Shown here piece by piece: positions 729 to 27,646 of a stretch of 32,000 nt of DNA. The notes under the pieces were generated by a model. The model did no database searches and was not told where the DNA came from. It saw only the letters and a program-made list of their open reading frames with translations. Source of the DNA: Methanopyrus kandleri AV19 (lineage in GTDB: Archaea > JAADCQ01 > Methanopyri > Methanopyrales > Methanopyraceae); contig NC_003551.1 of assembly GCF_000007185.1 (NCBI RefSeq), positions 510,001 through 542,000 on the forward strand, given 5' to 3'. Position 1 is the stretch's first letter. Each line of letters opens with the position of its first letter. Made by a program: the position numbers and the translations under genes.

Positions 729-855
729 GTGGCGGCGGCCACAGCGGCCGGGGCCACACCCGGGCCACATCTCGAACCCGGAAGTTAAGCCCGGCCGCGT
801 CCCGGGTGGTACTGCGCTCCGAGAGGGCGCGGGAAGCCCGGGATGCCGCCGCCGT
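729..855 (+). rRNA. rrf: 5S ribosomal RNA
   Basis: It contains the conserved archaeal 5S core CCACACCCGGxCxCAUxUCGAACCCGGAAGUUAAGCC and GUACUGCGCUCCGAGAGGGCGCGGGAAGCC. Helix I forms between GGCGGCGGC (731-739) and GCCGCCGCC (845-853). The ends are approximate to within a few nt. Confidence 0.9.
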
Positions 856-4254: not shown

Positions 4255-5541
4255 ATGGGGGGTAGCACGACGAAGTTCGGGTTCTTCACCCTCGTAGGTT
4301 ACACGGCGTTACTCCTGTCCTTAGGAGCGATCGTCGCGAGACTGTCCGAAGACAGGGGCCTCCCGGACATACCGTTCTTGCTCCTCCTCGGATTCTTGCT
4401 GGGCCCCATCGCCGGGATCGTACGTCCCGAGTACGCCCAGAAGGCGTTTCCGTTCGTGGGTACGCTAGGACTCATCATCATACTGCTCGACGGTGGATTC
4501 GAGATCGGTATCGACGTCCTGCGTCGCGTAGCCTCTCTCGTGGCGAAGTTAGACTCGATAACCCTACTGATAACGGCCGGGATATCCTCTCTGATATTCA
4601 ACCTCGTGTTCGGGCTGAAACCCTTCAGCCCGATAGGGTTCCTGTACGGCTCGATAACGTGTGCTACCGATCCGGCGACGTTGATCCCCGTATTCTCGAA
4701 GGTGGAGTTGCCTATCAACATTTCGACAGCTTTAATAGCCGAAAGCGTGTTCAACGATCCGCTAGGAGTCGTGCTGACCAAGATGTCACTGTCAGTGATG
4801 GGATTAAGCAGCCACCAGAATCCGATCCTGTTGTTCATCTCGTTAGCCGCAGGAGGAGCCGCCCTAGGCTTAGCCACCGGCGTGGTCCTCGAGCGATTGC
4901 TCGCCAGAGAGCCGTTCGGAGAGTATGTGGTACCCATAACCTTAGGAGCAGCCCTAGCGCTCTGGTACATATGCGAGGAGCTACTCCCTGGGTTGCTTGG
5001 ATACGAGCTGAGCGGATTCATGGCGGTGGCAGTACTTGGGATGTACCTGGGCAACAACTTGATCAAGCACGACTATCTGAAGGACGATCGGACGTTCCTC
5101 AAGGACTTCTTCGAAGAACTTTCCACAGTAGTCCGTATCATGGTGTTCACCCTCCTCGGAGCCTGCGTCAGCATTTCGCTGCTGAAGACGTTCTGGCTCA
5201 AGGGACTAGTATGCGCACTGAGCAACGTCTTCATCGCGCGGCCTGCAGGAGTCATCATCGGAACATACATACCACCGAAGGAGGACTTGAACCTGAAAGA
5301 GCGGATTTACCTGGCGCTCGAAGGACCGCGAGGGGTAGTACCGGCGGCTCTGGTAGGCACGATTTACTCCAAGATAGTATCTAACCCGCACGCGGTACCG
5401 GTAGCGATCGCCAGCGAGATGCCACCTAAGACCTTAGCCAGCGCCATTCTAGTGACCACGTTCCTCACGATATTCATCAGCGTGGTTCTCGAAGCTACAT
5501 GGGCTCAACCGCTGGCGAAGCGTCTTCTGAAGGAGGAGTAA
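4255..5541 (+). CDS. nhaP: NhaP-type Na+(K+)/H+ antiporter (CPA1 family)
   Basis: It is a polytopic membrane protein with the CPA1 motifs CATDPATLIPVF and ESVFNDPLGVV (ND motif). The start is set at ATG 4255 (MGGSTTKFGFF), 2 nt after the guaA stop. The longer ORF from 4123 overlaps guaA. Confidence 0.85.
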   Translation: MGGSTTKFGFFTLVGYTALLLSLGAIVARLSEDRGLPDIPFLLLLGFLLGPIAGIVRPEYAQKAFPFVGTLGLIIILLDGGFEIGIDVLRRVASLVAKLDSITLLITAGISSLIFNLVFGLKPFSPIGFLYGSITCATDPATLIPVFSKVELPINISTALIAESVFNDPLGVVLTKMSLSVMGLSSHQNPILLFISLAAGGAALGLATGVVLERLLAREPFGEYVVPITLGAALALWYICEELLPGLLGYELSGFMAVAVLGMYLGNNLIKHDYLKDDRTFLKDFFEELSTVVRIMVFTLLGACVSISLLKTFWLKGLVCALSNVFIARPAGVIIGTYIPPKEDLNLKERIYLALEGPRGVVPAALVGTIYSKIVSNPHAVPVAIASEMPPKTLASAILVTTFLTIFISVVLEATWAQPLAKRLLKEE

Positions 5542-5542
5542 C

Positions 5543-5600
5543 CCTCCGTCTGAGGAAAACTCGTCATCGCTCGGCAGGGGAGTGACTCTTCATCGGGGGA
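5543..5600 (-). ncRNA. Candidate C/D box sRNA with variant D boxes
   Basis: On the minus strand the order is CCGAUGA (5596-5590), 12 nt, CUGC (5577-5574), 4 nt, CGAUGA (5569-5564), 11 nt, CAGA (5552-5549). The spacing fits the C / 12 / D' / C' / 12 / D architecture, but both D-type boxes are non-canonical. Confidence 0.3.
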
Positions 5601-6761: not shown

Positions 6762-6776
6762 ATCATCCCCGCCGCT

Positions 6777-8289
<1,513 letters not shown>

Positions 8290-8920: not shown

Positions 8921-9209
8921 GTGGGGTCGGTCAAGGGTGGGTAGGTCATCGGGGCGACCTCCCCTTCGCGGGCACTCCTCATCCCGTCGGTTCGATACCC
9001 TGAACGTCGGCGGATTCCGGTCCCCGTAGGGGTGTCTCGCAACGATCCCGGAGGGGTCGAGCGGGCCGCCTCCGGGTACTGTCACAGGCCTCGGTTAATG
9101 TGGGCCACCGCCTGTGTCGACGCCACGCGACGGGCACTCGAAGGACTCAGATGTGACGCCCGGGTTATCGTTGTAGTTTCCATAACGATCGCCGAGAGGG
9201 TCAGGAGCG

Positions 9210-9244
9210 ACCGGTCAGCACCCTCGGGATTCATCACGGCCGGT
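9210..9244 (-). ncRNA. Candidate K-turn stem-loop (L7Ae-binding type) inside a larger structured non-coding region (8921-9349)
   Basis: The minus strand reads ACCGG-CCGU-GAUGA-AUCCCGAGGGUG-CUGA-CCGGU. A 5-bp terminal stem (ACCGG/CCGGU) closes box C-like GUGAUGA opposite box D CUGA, capped by a short hairpin (AUCC/GGGU). Confidence 0.35.
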
Positions 9245-9349
9245 GGCTCCGTTTGGGGCTAATCCCGCCATCATCCCGGACCCTTTCGGAGGAGGGTCGG
9301 GTGGGCGGATTCCGATCATCCCGTGGCGGTCGCTCCCGTGGCCGTGTCC

Positions 9350-10219
9350 TCATCCTTCCATCTCTTCGAGCTCTTCGAGCAACTTTTCGATGTCGTCGCG
9401 CTCCTCCTCCAGCTCCCCCAGCACCTCGGAGTCTTCGGCGACTTCACGGGCCATGGATTCGGGCATGTTGAGGACGTCGTTAAGGTACTCGTCGACGTCG
9501 CGGATCTCGCCGGCCTTCACGTCGAGGACCTTGTCGCAGTGCACGACGACGGTCCCGTCGTCGAGGATGCTCACCGGTGCCCGGTACTTGGGGAGGTGTG
9601 GAGGCAGGGTACGGATAGGGAGGAGACTGTACACCAGGGCGCCACGGAACTCGTGTACTGCGGTCTCCAGCAGGACGTCGGCGACCTCGGCGTTCGGCGA
9701 TCGTAAAGCGGACTCCGGTAGGGCGCATCCGGCGAGGACCGCGAGGTCGTTCCTCACGGCGGCTACCTTCAGGGTGGAGATTACCTGCAGGAACTTCTCG
9801 TGTTCGCCACGGTGCATCGGGTATATCGAGTCGATCACGACGACGTCGGGGTCGTATTCGGGGACGAGTTCTCGGATCCTGTGGGGCTCGAGGTCCTGGA
9901 TGATCTCGCCTACGGTCCGATGGTAGATACCGGCACGGACGCTGAAGGCGTTGAGGACGACCAGATCGCCTTTCTCGTAGGCTTCGCGGGCTCTCCTATC
10001 GTACTCCTCGGAACGTCGTAGGAACTCGTAGGGCGAGGTGCTGGTGGCGAGGAGGAGTACACGGAAACCGTCCTCCAGGACGTTCCAGACCGCGTTGTCG
10101 AGCAGGGGCTGCCGGGCGGACCCGGGAAGACCCGCGAGTACCGTCACACCACGTCTGGGGAGTCCGCCGCCGATCATCTCGTCGAAACCCGGTATGCGAG
10201 TCTCAATACGGTCGGTCAA
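9350..10219 (-). CDS. KaiC/RecA-superfamily protein with a degenerate Walker A motif (probably an inactive ATPase) and an acidic C-terminal tail
   Basis: The N-terminus RIPGFDEMIGGGLPRRGVTVLAGLPGSARQPL aligns to the KaiC/RadA pattern IPGLDxxLGGGxPxGxxxLxxGxPGxGKT, but GK[TS] is replaced by AR-Q. DVVVIDSI is Walker B-like. The C-terminus is EDSEVLGELEEERDDIEKLLEELEEMEG. Confidence 0.75.
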   Translation of the reverse strand: MTDRIETRIPGFDEMIGGGLPRRGVTVLAGLPGSARQPLLDNAVWNVLEDGFRVLLLATSTSPYEFLRRSEEYDRRAREAYEKGDLVVLNAFSVRAGIYHRTVGEIIQDLEPHRIRELVPEYDPDVVVIDSIYPMHRGEHEKFLQVISTLKVAAVRNDLAVLAGCALPESALRSPNAEVADVLLETAVHEFRGALVYSLLPIRTLPPHLPKYRAPVSILDDGTVVVHCDKVLDVKAGEIRDVDEYLNDVLNMPESMAREVAEDSEVLGELEEERDDIEKLLEELEEMEG

Positions 10220-10772: not shown

Positions 10773-10880
10773 CCGGGATCCCCGTGAGGAGCTACTCCGG
10801 AGGTGAGGTTAATCCGATGATCGGACCCCCGGGACCGAGGGGCCGAAGGGATGGGGAGCTAGTCCGGGGGTGAGGGGGTA

Positions 10881-12044: not shown

Positions 12045-13307
12045 TTGGGGGTGTACGTGGCCGAGAACTTCACCGGAGTTTACGCGTTCGATGAGGAGGG
12101 GAACCTGATAGACCACGAGCCGTTCCCGAAGGACCCGGACGAGATAGTGGAACGTCTGCTGAAGCGGGAACGTGGTGAGGTGTTGGAAGAGGAAGAGGCG
12201 CTGCTGTCGAGACTGGACGCGGACGTGATCAACTTCGAGGGTACGAAGGCGGACCGGGAGCGGCTCGAGGAGGTGTTCGACGGAGAGCTGGTCGTCGAGT
12301 TCCCGAACGTGGCTGGGGAGGTCCTTCGAGAGCGAGCACGGGAGCTCGCCGTCGAGGTCGGTGTGGTCGACTCCGAGGAGGAGTACTCGGAGCTCGTGTA
12401 CGAGGTCGGCATGAAGCTGTCGAAGGAGAAGGTCCGGGCGACGGTAGAGGAACGGGATCAGATGATCATTCAGGCTATCAACACTATCGACGATATCGAC
12501 AGGATACTGAACATACTCACCGACCGCGTGCGAGAGTGGTACGGAATACACTTCCCCGAGATCAACAAGATCGTGAAGAAGCACGACGATTTCGTGACGT
12601 TGGTGGCCGAGCTGGGGCACCGGAAGAACTTCACTTATGACAACATCAAGGAGGTGCTGCCCGAGTTCCCCGATCATCTGGCCGAGAAGCTCGAGGAGGC
12701 CGCGAAGGACTCGATGGGTGCGGAGATGGACGAGAAGGACTTGGCGGCGGTGCAGCGGATCGCGGAGGTCGCGCGGGAGCTCTACGAGATCAGGCGGAAG
12801 ACTGCGGACTACATCGACGAGTCGATGGACGACGTGGCGCCGAACGTGAAGGCTCTGGTGGGTCCACTGATCGGTGCGAGGTTGATCGCGCTGGCCGGCG
12901 GCTTGAAGGAGATGGCGAAGTTACCCGCGAGCACGATCCAGCTGTTGGGAGCGGAGAAGGCGCTGTTCAGGCACCTGACCAAGGGTACGAAGCCGCCGAA
13001 GCACGGTGTGATCTTCCAGCACCCGCTCATCCACCGGAGCCCGTGGTGGCAGCGCGGTAAGATCGCGAGGGCGCTGGCCGGTAAGCTGGCCATCGCGGCG
13101 CGTATCGACGCTTACTCCGGTGAGTACCGGGGCGACGAGCTGAGGCGACAGCTGGAGCAGCGGGTGAAAGAGATCAAGGAGAAGTACCCGAAGCCCCCGA
13201 AGCGCAAGCGTGGTGGTCGGCCGCCTCGCGGTCGTCGACCGCGTCGGAGGCGTTCACCCCGGAGATCTCGTAGGGATCGCCGGCGCCGCTCACGTCGAAG
13301 GCGGTGA
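12045..13307 (+). CDS. nop5: Nop5 (Nop56/58 homologue), C/D box sRNP core protein, with an unusual Arg-rich C-terminal tail
   Basis: The N-terminus YVAENFTGVYAFDEEGNLI is Nop5-like. The NOP domain carries AGGLKEMAKLPASTIQLLGAEKALFRHL..KPPKHGVIFQHP. The start is TTG 12045 or GTG 12051. Confidence 0.95.
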   Translation: MGVYVAENFTGVYAFDEEGNLIDHEPFPKDPDEIVERLLKRERGEVLEEEEALLSRLDADVINFEGTKADRERLEEVFDGELVVEFPNVAGEVLRERARELAVEVGVVDSEEEYSELVYEVGMKLSKEKVRATVEERDQMIIQAINTIDDIDRILNILTDRVREWYGIHFPEINKIVKKHDDFVTLVAELGHRKNFTYDNIKEVLPEFPDHLAEKLEEAAKDSMGAEMDEKDLAAVQRIAEVARELYEIRRKTADYIDESMDDVAPNVKALVGPLIGARLIALAGGLKEMAKLPASTIQLLGAEKALFRHLTKGTKPPKHGVIFQHPLIHRSPWWQRGKIARALAGKLAIAARIDAYSGEYRGDELRRQLEQRVKEIKEKYPKPPKRKRGGRPPRGRRPRRRRSPRRSRRDRRRRSRRRR

Positions 13308-13354
13308 CTTCATTTCCCCTGAACACAGCAGTTTTTTCGGGGGTGAGTGGGAAA

Positions 13355-14053
13355 ATGGTGGAGATCGAGATCGAACCGCATGAGGAGTTTGAGGGTGTGT
13401 ACTGGGCGATCTTCGAGGACGGTCGGAAGAAGCCCGCGACCGAGAACCTCGTGCCCGGACATCAGGTTTACGGTGAGAGGTTGGTAGAGTACGACGGGAA
13501 GGAGTACCGCGTATGGGAGCCACGGAGGAGCAAGCTCGCCGCCATGATCATGAACGGCATGGAGTACTTCCCGTTCGAGGAGGGTTCGAAGGTACTTTAC
13601 CTGGGTGCGGCGGCCGGAACGACACCGTCACACGTGTCGGACATCATCAAGGAGTCGGGCGTGGAGTACTGCGTCGAGTTCGCCTCGAGGATGATGCAGG
13701 AGCTGATCCCGGTGTGTGAGAAGCGCCCGAACATGATACCCATCCTGGGCGACGCTACGAAGCCGCACGGGTACGCTCCGCTCGTCGAGCAAGTAGACGT
13801 AATCTACCAGGACATCGCTCAGCCGAAACAGGCGGAGGTCGTCGCGGACAACGCCGAGGCGTTCCTGCGTCCCGGAGGGTACGTGATCGTCGCTATTAAG
13901 GCGCGCTCTATCGACGTAACTAAGGAGCCGGAAGAGGTCTTCGAGGACGAGGAGCGCAAGCTCGAGGAGCGTGGCTTCGAGGTGCTAGAAGTCATCGATC
14001 TGGAGCCGTACGAGCGTGATCACGTGGGGATCGTCGCGGAGTACCACGGGTAA
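13355..14053 (+). CDS. flpA: Fibrillarin-like rRNA/tRNA 2'-O-methyltransferase
   Basis: Motifs RVWEPRRSKLAA, VLYLGAAAGTTPSHVSDI, VIYQDIAQP and LRPGGYVIVAIKARSID are present. ATG 13355 is preceded by GGGGTGAG. Confidence 0.95.
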   Translation: MVEIEIEPHEEFEGVYWAIFEDGRKKPATENLVPGHQVYGERLVEYDGKEYRVWEPRRSKLAAMIMNGMEYFPFEEGSKVLYLGAAAGTTPSHVSDIIKESGVEYCVEFASRMMQELIPVCEKRPNMIPILGDATKPHGYAPLVEQVDVIYQDIAQPKQAEVVADNAEAFLRPGGYVIVAIKARSIDVTKEPEEVFEDEERKLEERGFEVLEVIDLEPYERDHVGIVAEYHG

Positions 14054-14110
14054 CCGTGATGAGCGTTTCGCTAGCCGACGCGCGGATGACGAGTTACTCC
14101 CGCTCTGAGC
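14054..14110 (+). ncRNA. Candidate C/D box sRNA immediately downstream of flpA
   Basis: Box C is GUGAUGA (14056-14062), followed by a 12-nt spacer and D'-like CCGA (14075-14078). C'-like GGAUGA (14084-14089) is followed by box D CUGA (14105-14108). The total of about 55 nt is typical of archaeal C/D sRNAs. Confidence 0.5.
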
Positions 14111-14117
14111 TCTTCTC

Positions 14118-14170
14118 CCGATGACTGCATTCACCCCTCCTGAATAAGTGATGAAGCGGTCCCCGGAGAG
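14118..14170 (+). ncRNA. Second candidate C/D box sRNA (terminal D box degenerate)
   Basis: The order is CCGAUGA (14118-14124), then canonical CUGA (14140-14143), AUAA, GUGAUGA (14148-14154), which is the D'/C' arrangement. No canonical CUGA follows; GAGA or AGAG sits at the expected distance. Confidence 0.3.
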
Positions 14171-14302
14171 GAGGGCCCGATGACGAGGCAGCCCCAGCCC
14201 GAGGGATGACGACGGAGAGCCGAGCCGAGGGCGAGAGACTTTAACCGCGAACGTCGATTCACGGACGGCGACAGCCGGTAAGGTGAGTGATGGGGTGCGA
14301 GC

Positions 14303-15274
14303 GTGAACGTTCTAGAAGTTCTGGTCGTCGTCGTACCTTCACTCTACATGGGATGGACCATAGGGGCCGACGACGCCGGTGCGGCCATGGGGTCCGCCGT
14401 CGGAGCAGGTGTCCGCACGATGCGGCAGGCGGTTACACTGATCGCCGTTTTCACGACTATGGGCGCGGTGCTGGAAGGGCACAAGGTGGTCAAGACGCTG
14501 GGAAAGGGAGTCGTACAGGCTCACCTCGACCCTATCGCGGCCGGTGCGACCGTGCTCGTGGCGGCCGCCTGGTACCACCTGGCCGTGATGCTCGGAGTAC
14601 CAGTCTCCACGACACAGGCTACCGTGGGATCCATCGCCGGAGTAGGGTGCGCGCTGGGTCTCCCGGTTAACTGGAGCAAGTTCGGCCAGATCGCCGTCGG
14701 ATGGTTCTTGTCACCGATACTCGCGATGATACCCGCCTATTTCGTTTCTCGACGCTTGCGAGCCGTATTGGAGAAGGGTAAATGGCCGCTCGCCGAGATA
14801 GAGCGAAAGATCGGATGGTTACTCACCATCTCAGGGTGCTACGTCGCCTATACGATAGGAGCGAACAACGCCGCCAACGCCGTGGCGCCGATAGTGATGA
14901 CCGGTCTTCTGGACGTCAGATCGGCCGCTATCGTAGGTGGAATCATGATCGCGGTGGGAGCTCTAACCGCGGGTTCCAAGGTCATCGAGACCGTGGGGAG
15001 GAAGATCACTCGGTTGGACCCCGTAACAGCGTTCTCGGCGGAACTTTCGGCCGCGATAGTCACGCACGGGGCGTCGGAGCTCGGAATCCCCATTTCCATC
15101 AACGAGACGACGGCGGGAGCGGTCATCGGCGTGGGGCTATCCCGAGGGGAACTCAACACCCACACCTTGAAGAAGATATTTACAACGTGGATCGCGAGCC
15201 CTGTGGGCTCGTTCGTAATGTCGTACGCACTCATGCGTCTCTACTTGTCGGTGCGAGGGGCGGCGGTGCCTTGA
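14303..15274 (+). CDS. pit: Inorganic phosphate transporter, PiT family
   Basis: It is a polytopic membrane protein with the duplicated PiT signature (GWTIGADDAGAAMGSAVG and YTIGANNAANAVAPIV). It starts at GTG, with AGGTGA upstream. Confidence 0.9.
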   Translation: MNVLEVLVVVVPSLYMGWTIGADDAGAAMGSAVGAGVRTMRQAVTLIAVFTTMGAVLEGHKVVKTLGKGVVQAHLDPIAAGATVLVAAAWYHLAVMLGVPVSTTQATVGSIAGVGCALGLPVNWSKFGQIAVGWFLSPILAMIPAYFVSRRLRAVLEKGKWPLAEIERKIGWLLTISGCYVAYTIGANNAANAVAPIVMTGLLDVRSAAIVGGIMIAVGALTAGSKVIETVGRKITRLDPVTAFSAELSAAIVTHGASELGIPISINETTAGAVIGVGLSRGELNTHTLKKIFTTWIASPVGSFVMSYALMRLYLSVRGAAVP

Positions 15275-27568: not shown

Positions 27569-27646
27569 CGCCAACCTGTGGATGGGGAACAGGCTGAGCG
27601 CCGAGGCCTCGGGCCCGTGACGAGAGAACCCGGAGCCGACTACATG

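Follow-up and report, generated by a model that had tools for sequence, protein, structure and literature searches.

Three box C/D guide RNAs with predicted rRNA targets, probably 3'-tail products of the nop5-flpA genes of Methanopyrus kandleri

Introduction

Positions 14051-14237 of the window, by which we mean the whole 32-kb stretch of Methanopyrus kandleri AV19 DNA that was analyzed, encode three box C/D guide RNAs that are probably products of the 3' tail of nop5-flpA and that have predicted targets in rRNA, a reading in which we have very high confidence. The three units, each marked by a pair of GAUGA motifs, are the M. kandleri C/D box sRNAs sR43, sR44, and sR45. These are already known, the RNAs having been described experimentally in 2013 and their targets predicted in 2015, and a cluster of this kind is an ordinary feature for a hyperthermophilic archaeon with 126 C/D genes. 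Of the two readings that the original prediction drew from the letters of the DNA, the first, in which nop5-flpA is followed by several C/D guide RNAs in tandem, is therefore borne out by the published RNAs, by the conservation of the boxes and guides, and by complementarity to rRNA; guide-RNA genes were recognized correctly from raw sequence, and the meaning of the case beyond that confirmation is small.

The Motif Array and the Published RNAs

The array consists, as had been described, of six plus-strand GATGA motifs (14058, 14085, 14120, 14150, 14179, and 14205), four of which read GATGAC(G/T), together with CTGA at 14105 and 14140; the flpA stop codon is TAA at 14051-14053, and the first C box begins 2 nt after it. 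The number of GATGA motifs expected by chance had been put at about 0.1, which is about right: recomputed, the figure is ~0.15 per 172 nt (0.14 from base composition, 0.17 from the window's own plus-strand rate). The Poisson probability of at least six in 172 nt is 3e-8, or ~1e-5 when corrected for all windows, and the maximum in any 172-nt stretch of 300 shuffled sequences was 4. The window as a whole holds 96 GATGA against 62 expected, and much of this excess comes from seven further published C/D sRNAs (sR37-42 and sR46, Table 1), with which 10 of the 126 C/D sRNAs of the genome fall within 1.9% of its length; the printed sequence of one of them, sR42, has no exact match in the window.

Stable small RNAs from this spacer, which the original prediction had called for, are found in the literature, since Su, Tripp, and Randau (2013, NAR 41:6250; PMC3695527, Table S1) detected sRNAs 43, 44, and 45 by RNA-seq at genome positions 524051, 524115, and 524175, with read coverages of 64100, 26800, and 63400, respectively, and with circular forms of sR43 and sR45, none being seen for sR44. 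The published sequences match the window base for base at 14051-14114, 14116-14177, and 14175-14237, and the same RNAs appear as MKAsR43-45 in Dennis et al. (2015, BMC Genomics 16:632). The tRNA-Arg of genome positions 512322-512249 falls at 2322-2249 here, which places the window at 510001-542000 of NC_003551. In the whole window, Rfam at its gathering threshold reports only the 16S rRNA, the 5S rRNA, and one tRNA, and no C/D match; a permissive scan of 13900-14400 returns archaeal C/D box families exclusively, all on the plus strand, the best match being Pyrococcus sR39 (RF01122) at 14049-14110 with 27.5 bits (E=6.6e-5 in a 501-nt search), below the gathering score of 50 for that family.

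Anatomy of the Three Units

The layout given for M. kandleri in the published table has a C box of the form (GA)TGATGA and a D box CNGA (PMC3695527). With NUGANGA taken as the C box and CNGA as the D box, both guides of the first and third units become exactly 12 nt long, and this sets the register of the boxes: the GAUGA positions of the original prediction stand, but the working box in the third unit, and the C' box of the first, is AUGACGA, shifted by 1 nt. A GAUGA at these places is the last bulge nucleotide followed by the first four bases of the AUGACGA box, which explains the form GAUGAC(G/U) of four motifs, and the recognition of NUGANGA as the working M. kandleri C box, which accounts for those motifs, is a small addition of the present analysis. 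The third unit, which had been credited with the GAUGA pair only, carries CCGA boxes, a form of the CNGA of the published layout, at both the D' and the D position, and the D'-AUAA-C' core of the second unit has CTGA and GTGATGA on either side of the loop ATAA (Table 1).

Table 1. Positions of the RNAs, their boxes and guides, and the neighboring genes in the window
Feature	Coordinates	Strand	Evidence
5S rRNA, lone, ~6 kb from 16S	731-854	+	Rfam
tRNA-Arg	2322-2249 (genome 512322-512249)		Rfam and published table
sR37	5532-5598	-	published
16S rRNA, complete archaeal	6776-8289	-	Rfam
sR38	8923-8987	-	published
sR39 (M. kandleri)	9204-9280	-	published
sR40	9290-9358	-	published
sR41	10778-10845	+	published
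sR42	~10852	+	published
nop5	12045-13307	+	Pfam Nop E=3.5e-75, Nop5 N-terminal domain E=5.6e-22
flpA (fibrillarin)	13304-14053	+	Pfam Fibrillarin E=1.8e-103
sR43	14051-14114	+	published sRNA, strict 12-nt-spacer pattern, weak Rfam sR39 match
sR43 boxes	C GTGATGA 14056-62; D' CCGA 14075-78; C' ATGACGA 14086-92; D CTGA 14105-08	+
sR43 guides	D' 14063-74; D 14093-14104	+
sR44	14116-14177	+	exact match to published sRNA
sR44 boxes	C CCGATGA 14118-24; D' CTGA 14140-43; C' GTGATGA 14148-54; D probably GAGA 14166-69	+
sR44 guides	D' spacer 14125-39 (15 nt); D 14155-65	+
sR45	14175-14237	+	published sRNA; strict pattern in window and four relatives
sR45 boxes	C ATGACGA 14180-86; D' CCGA 14199-14202; C' ATGACGA 14206-12; D CCGA 14225-28	+
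sR45 guides	D' 14187-98; D 14213-24	+
AV19-specific 56-nt stretch, sR45 to transporter	14233-14288	+	absent from L001-L004
PiT-family phosphate transporter	14303-15274	+	Pfam PHO4 E=7.5e-65
sR46	27577-27642	+	published

A strict pattern (NUGANGA, 11-13 nt, (C/U)NGA, loop, NUGANGA, 11-13 nt, CNGA) recovers sR43 and sR45, each with guides of 12 and 12 nt, not only in the window but also in each of the four Methanopyri relatives described below. The boxes of a terminal kink-turn are present in sR43 (GUGAUGA/CUGA) and sR45 (AUGACGA/CCGA), as well as in sR44, where CCGAUGA is matched with a degenerate GAGA; the internal D'/C' arrangement of a K-loop is likewise present in all three, with a 7-nt loop in sR43, AUAA in sR44, and GGG in sR45. 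The terminal stem of sR45, in which GCCC at 14175-78 pairs with GGGC at 14229-32, is placed correctly for a kink-turn. The atypical member is sR44, with its 15-nt C-to-D' spacer, its poorly conserved D box, and the lack of circular reads, so that guide spacers of about 12 nt, found in sR43 and sR45, are only partly found there (15 and ~11 nt). The units are tightly packed, with 1 nt between sR43 and sR44 and with the last 3 nt of sR44 shared by sR45.

Conservation in the Methanopyri

A protein scan of reference genomes with fibrillarin returned four Methanopyri genomes (L001-L004) with ~90% protein identity, and when the DNA 3' of flpA is aligned, it resolves into three strongly conserved blocks with variable spacers between them. 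Conservation in relatives, on which the original prediction had been staked, is clear: identity across the five genomes (AV19 and L001-L004) is 89-100% in boxes and guides, 0-79% in loops, and 42% in the sR43/sR44 spacer, while in the flpA codons of the same genomes third positions are 70% identical versus 98.7% at positions 1 and 2. The D guide of sR45 is invariant at 12 of 12 positions. The guides of sR44 are also conserved, its loop and D-box region being variable, with GAGA as the D box in AV19, GUGA or UAGA in relatives, and none that is clear in L001. The ortholog of sR43 in L001 (2418-2474) has GUGAGGA as its C box and CCGA as its D box in place of the GUGAUGA and CUGA of the other genomes, a paired change that turns the U-U of the kink-turn into G-C and thus lends support to the kink-turn.

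The order GHMP kinase, nop5, flpA, sRNAs, transporter is the same in L001 and L002. Across the Methanopyri the order nop5-flpA-sR43-sR44-sR45-phosphate transporter is constant, and the differences lie in the promoter and spacer sequences that separate one unit from the next. The strict pattern also flags further candidate sRNA genes in the relatives (L002 14247-14302, L003 8340-8394, L004 4132-4187, and, on the minus strand, L001 7611-7664), those of L002-L004 lying ~3.4 kb downstream of the cluster; an example reads ATGAGGA GCGCCCTCGGTC CTGA ... ATGACGA GGGCGGACTTAC CCGA, and no counterpart was flagged by the strict pattern in the window.

Predicted rRNA Targets

Two sets of target predictions have been published. 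Su et al. 2013 assigned the D guide of sR43 to 23S-2103, the D guide of sR45 to 23S-2708 and its D' guide to 16S-809, and no target to sR44 (PMC3695527). Dennis et al. 2015, who use alignment numbering, list 23S G2173 and C2200 for sR43. For sR44 and sR45 their table has two rows each: the first rows name 23S G1004 and 23S G2783, respectively, and the second rows 16S G692 and G668 for sR44 (as interpreted here, the table being garbled) and G2564 and G2520 for sR45. The two sources thus differ on the target of the sR45 D' guide, which Su et al. place at 16S-809.

Our own search covered the 16S gene of the window and three M. kandleri 23S stretches (500 nt in total) from the supplementary alignment of Dennis et al. 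The spacer complementarity under the fifth-position rule that the original prediction had proposed to look for is present, the guides pairing with 23S or 16S rRNA where Dennis et al. 2015 had predicted. Five of the six form paired runs of 9-12 bases, and the fifth position is a Watson-Crick pair. The D guide of sR43 pairs with 23S GGCGGGGGUAAC at column 2173 (10 Watson-Crick and 2 G-U pairs) and its D' guide with 23S GUAGCGAAAUGC at column 2200 (11 contiguous pairs). The two guides of sR44 find 16S G663 (D') and G687 (D), both in native numbering and each with 9 contiguous pairs; these nucleotides are 24 nt apart and are G668 and G692 in alignment numbering. The D guide of sR45 pairs with 23S GUCGGCUCUCCC at column 2783 over 10 contiguous pairs. 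Its D' guide fits 23S column 2520 or 16S G809 about equally well, with 8 contiguous pairs only and 10 of 12 positions paired. When guides were shuffled, matches for both guides within 60 nt arose in none of 500 trials with sR43 and in 4 of 500 with sR44, and a single-guide match in 16S, such as that of the sR45 D' guide, is not significant, 237 of 500 shuffles giving one.

Counting alignment rows gives G1907, C1934, and G2509 as the E. coli equivalents of columns 2173, 2200, and 2783, and column 2520 we take to be E. coli G2251 in the P loop. The predicted targets of sR43 are accordingly the equivalents of 23S G1907 and C1934, around helix 69-71; those predicted for sR44 are 16S G663 and G687; the D guide of sR45 is predicted to act on the 23S G2509 equivalent near the peptidyl-transferase centre; and the predicted target of its D' guide is ambiguous between the P-loop G2251 equivalent and 16S G809.

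Relation to the sR39 Family

Pyrococcus sR39 (RF01122) is a double guide, and it has both of its 12-nt guides (D' ..UUUCGCUAG and D UAC(C/U)C(U/C)CGC) in common with sR43, so that the same two 23S sites are to be expected for both RNAs and an sR39-like function would follow despite the sub-threshold score; sR43 differs from the Pyrococcus RNA in its D' box CCGA, its C' box AUGACGA, and its longer loop. A metagenome scan with the sR43 D' guide returned 91 stretches, and 27 non-Methanopyri loci encode an RNA of the sR39 type in which both guides are present and the spacers measure 12 nt. None of the 20 such loci with at least 900 nt of upstream sequence has fibrillarin or Nop5 upstream of the RNA, and flpA/nop5 precede it only in two Methanopyri contigs, L059 and L071. 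An ancient linkage to flpA, which we had entertained, is rejected on the strength of these 20 informative loci, which lack flpA and nop5, and the linkage of sR43 to flpA is specific to the Methanopyri lineage. From the opposite direction, the flpA loci of five distant archaea (L005-L009) yielded no C/D RNA with Rfam at E<=0.05 and the strict pattern, a combination that is insensitive to divergent sRNAs. We therefore see sR43 as a member of a widespread double-guide family of the sR39 type that is unlinked to flpA outside the Methanopyri.

Ten metagenomic loci (L011, L015, L046, L051, L055, L057, L061, L065, L077, and L094) have the D' guide AAUUUCGCUAG as in sR43 together with another D guide, (U/G)CCCUGCCGUUA, from which it appears that the guide for the C1934 equivalent is combined with various partners across lineages.

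Genomic Context and Proposed Maturation

Within the window the cluster stands between flpA and a phosphate transporter gene (Table 1). The start codon of nop5 may be a GTG a few codons downstream of the one tabulated. Codons 14-20 of this gene hold a C-box-like GAUGAGGA, 7 nt, and then CUGA (GATGAGGA...CTGA in the DNA, 12090-12107), which resembles a small kink-turn hairpin; as a candidate kink-turn at the 5' end of nop5 this C/D-like pair was rejected, for it is not conserved in L001, where CUGA is absent, and the likeness probably stems from the conservation of the FDEEG peptide. The 23S rRNA gene has no Rfam match at the gathering threshold in the 32 kb, and the 16S, 23S, and 5S rRNA genes appear to be unlinked here.

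The relatives differ from AV19 on either side of sR44 and sR45. Between sR43 and sR44, L002-L004 have TTTTTATA or TTTTTATT, the T-rich stretch TTTTTAT(A/T) lying at ~10775-10800 in L002, ~4872-4895 in L003, and ~660-685 in L004, and AV19 has no T-rich spacer at the corresponding place (window 14109-14117). Beyond sR45, the GTG start of the transporter follows after ~20 nt in L001-L004, and AV19 has its 56-nt stretch, within which TTTAAC at 14240-45 could be a box A promoter, the described box A motif being TTTAAA (PMC3695527). The loss of the T-rich spacer and the gain of the 56-nt insertion in AV19 suggest that transcription units have been rewired within the class; on these elements we infer that sR44 and sR45 would form the leader of the transporter in the relatives and the tail of flpA in AV19.

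In the course of events that we propose for AV19, the transcript of nop5-flpA would carry the three units as its 3' tail. Within each of them C and D would fold as a kink-turn and C' and D' as a K-loop, structures to which L7Ae would bind, Nop5 and fibrillarin joining afterwards; the assembled particle would then shield a body of ~60 nt while the flanks are trimmed, and sR43 and sR45 would in addition be ligated to circles. In the mature particle the guide would pair with rRNA, and fibrillarin is predicted to methylate the 2'-OH of the nucleotide that is paired five positions upstream of D or D'.

Transcription and Alternative Explanations

That sR43-45 are co-transcribed with nop5-flpA is likely, and we infer it from three circumstances taken together, namely the published 5' end of sR43, which coincides with the T of TAA, the stop codon of flpA, the absence of an A/T-rich element between flpA and sR43 in the five genomes and from the last 40 bp of flpA, and the known precedent of other archaeal C/D genes, ~25% of which extend into the 3' end of the gene before them, stop codon included, and whose clusters of two or three members are regarded as polycistronic (PMC7994747). 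It may instead be that the sRNA genes are transcribed alone or with the downstream transporter, their closeness to flpA being an accident of a compact genome, and the relatives offer some encouragement, inasmuch as the T-rich elements of L002-L004 may serve as a terminator or a TATA box or in both ways, and the short distance from sR45 to the transporter start suggests a sR44-sR45-transporter unit there; C/D genes are, moreover, dense in this part of the genome. We nevertheless hold this to be rather unlikely for AV19, where no T-rich spacer separates sR43 from sR44, which are almost contiguous, where sR43 begins on the flpA stop codon and so leaves no room for a promoter, and where the end of flpA supplies no A/T-rich element in its place; besides, only ~20% of archaeal C/D genes have a TATA-like motif of their own (PMC7994747). 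Scarcely credible, by comparison, is the idea that the region is protein-coding or a tandem DNA repeat, with the motif spacing as a by-product: two minus-strand ORFs of 49 and 43 aa (13985-14134 and 14131-14262) do overlap it, but conservation tracks the boxes and guides rather than codons, the variable insertions of ~30 and ~60 nt in the relatives fall exactly in the spacers, the abundant species are plus-strand RNAs, and Tandem Repeats Finder finds nothing, so that the units are neither a DNA tandem repeat nor recent duplicates.

A different kind of alternative, which the original prediction had itself put forward, accepts the kink-turns but takes them to be mainly an L7Ae-binding 3' UTR that feeds back on the nop5-flpA mRNA, the guide role being secondary or absent. 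The RNAs do stand directly behind the genes of two partner proteins in all Methanopyri genomes examined, and in Sulfolobus L7Ae regulates the l7ae and nop5-fibrillarin mRNAs through kink-turns; the known regulatory kink-turns, however, lie in the 5' UTR or in the first 125 nt, where they block translation (PMC5539422), and all motifs of the present array come after the flpA stop codon. The guides too, and not the boxes alone, are strongly constrained and pair with rRNA, and the RNAs build up in quantity as discrete molecules, some of them circular; this constraint and the abundance of the free RNAs mark guide function as the primary role. An sR39-type guide RNA, furthermore, sits away from flpA in the 20 informative non-Methanopyri loci, and Rfam and the strict pattern, insensitive as they are to divergent sRNAs, showed no C/D RNA in the five other archaeal flpA loci, downstream of flpA included. 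We know of no comparable L7Ae regulation for a 3' UTR. Feedback through the 3' UTR is thus not needed to explain the data, and as the main role of the cluster we find it very unlikely. A related reading would have the three abundant guide RNAs at the 3' end couple the supply of guides to that of the enzyme in the Methanopyri, the assembly and excision of the sRNPs setting the lifetime of the flpA mRNA, and the different wiring in the relatives would then suggest that such a link can come and go quickly; this is a speculation to which we would attach little weight.

Comparison with Known Systems

The closest comparison is with the M. kandleri sRNAs 43-45 themselves (Su 2013; Dennis 2015), with which the cluster is identical in sequences, strand, coordinates, layout, and predicted targets. 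What is added here is the comparison with other Methanopyri genomes; the available text of those two studies carries no remark on the placement of the RNAs behind nop5-flpA. Among archaeal C/D genes that overlap the 3' end of another gene or are polycistronic, as far as the work of Tripp et al. 2017 is reported in PMC7994747, the arrangement is a familiar one, three genes in a row that likewise have no promoter of their own, and it differs from the 3'-overlapping genes reported there in that the host gene encodes the methyltransferase of the same particle.

The remaining parallel is with the L7Ae-responsive kink-turns of the l7ae and nop5-fibrillarin mRNAs (Daume 2017 mBio; Huang, Ashraf, and Lilley 2019 RNA), which are likewise carried on the transcript of an sRNP protein. 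Should placement in the 3' UTR prove to affect nop5-flpA expression, the known L7Ae circuit would be extended, and the coupling of guide to enzyme supply, if true, would parallel at the 3' end the L7Ae feedback that is known from the 5' end. The elements themselves are nonetheless of different kinds: the L7Ae-responsive mRNA elements are single kink-turns at the 5' end, whereas those of M. kandleri are complete guide RNAs that lie behind the stop codon and are released as stable species.
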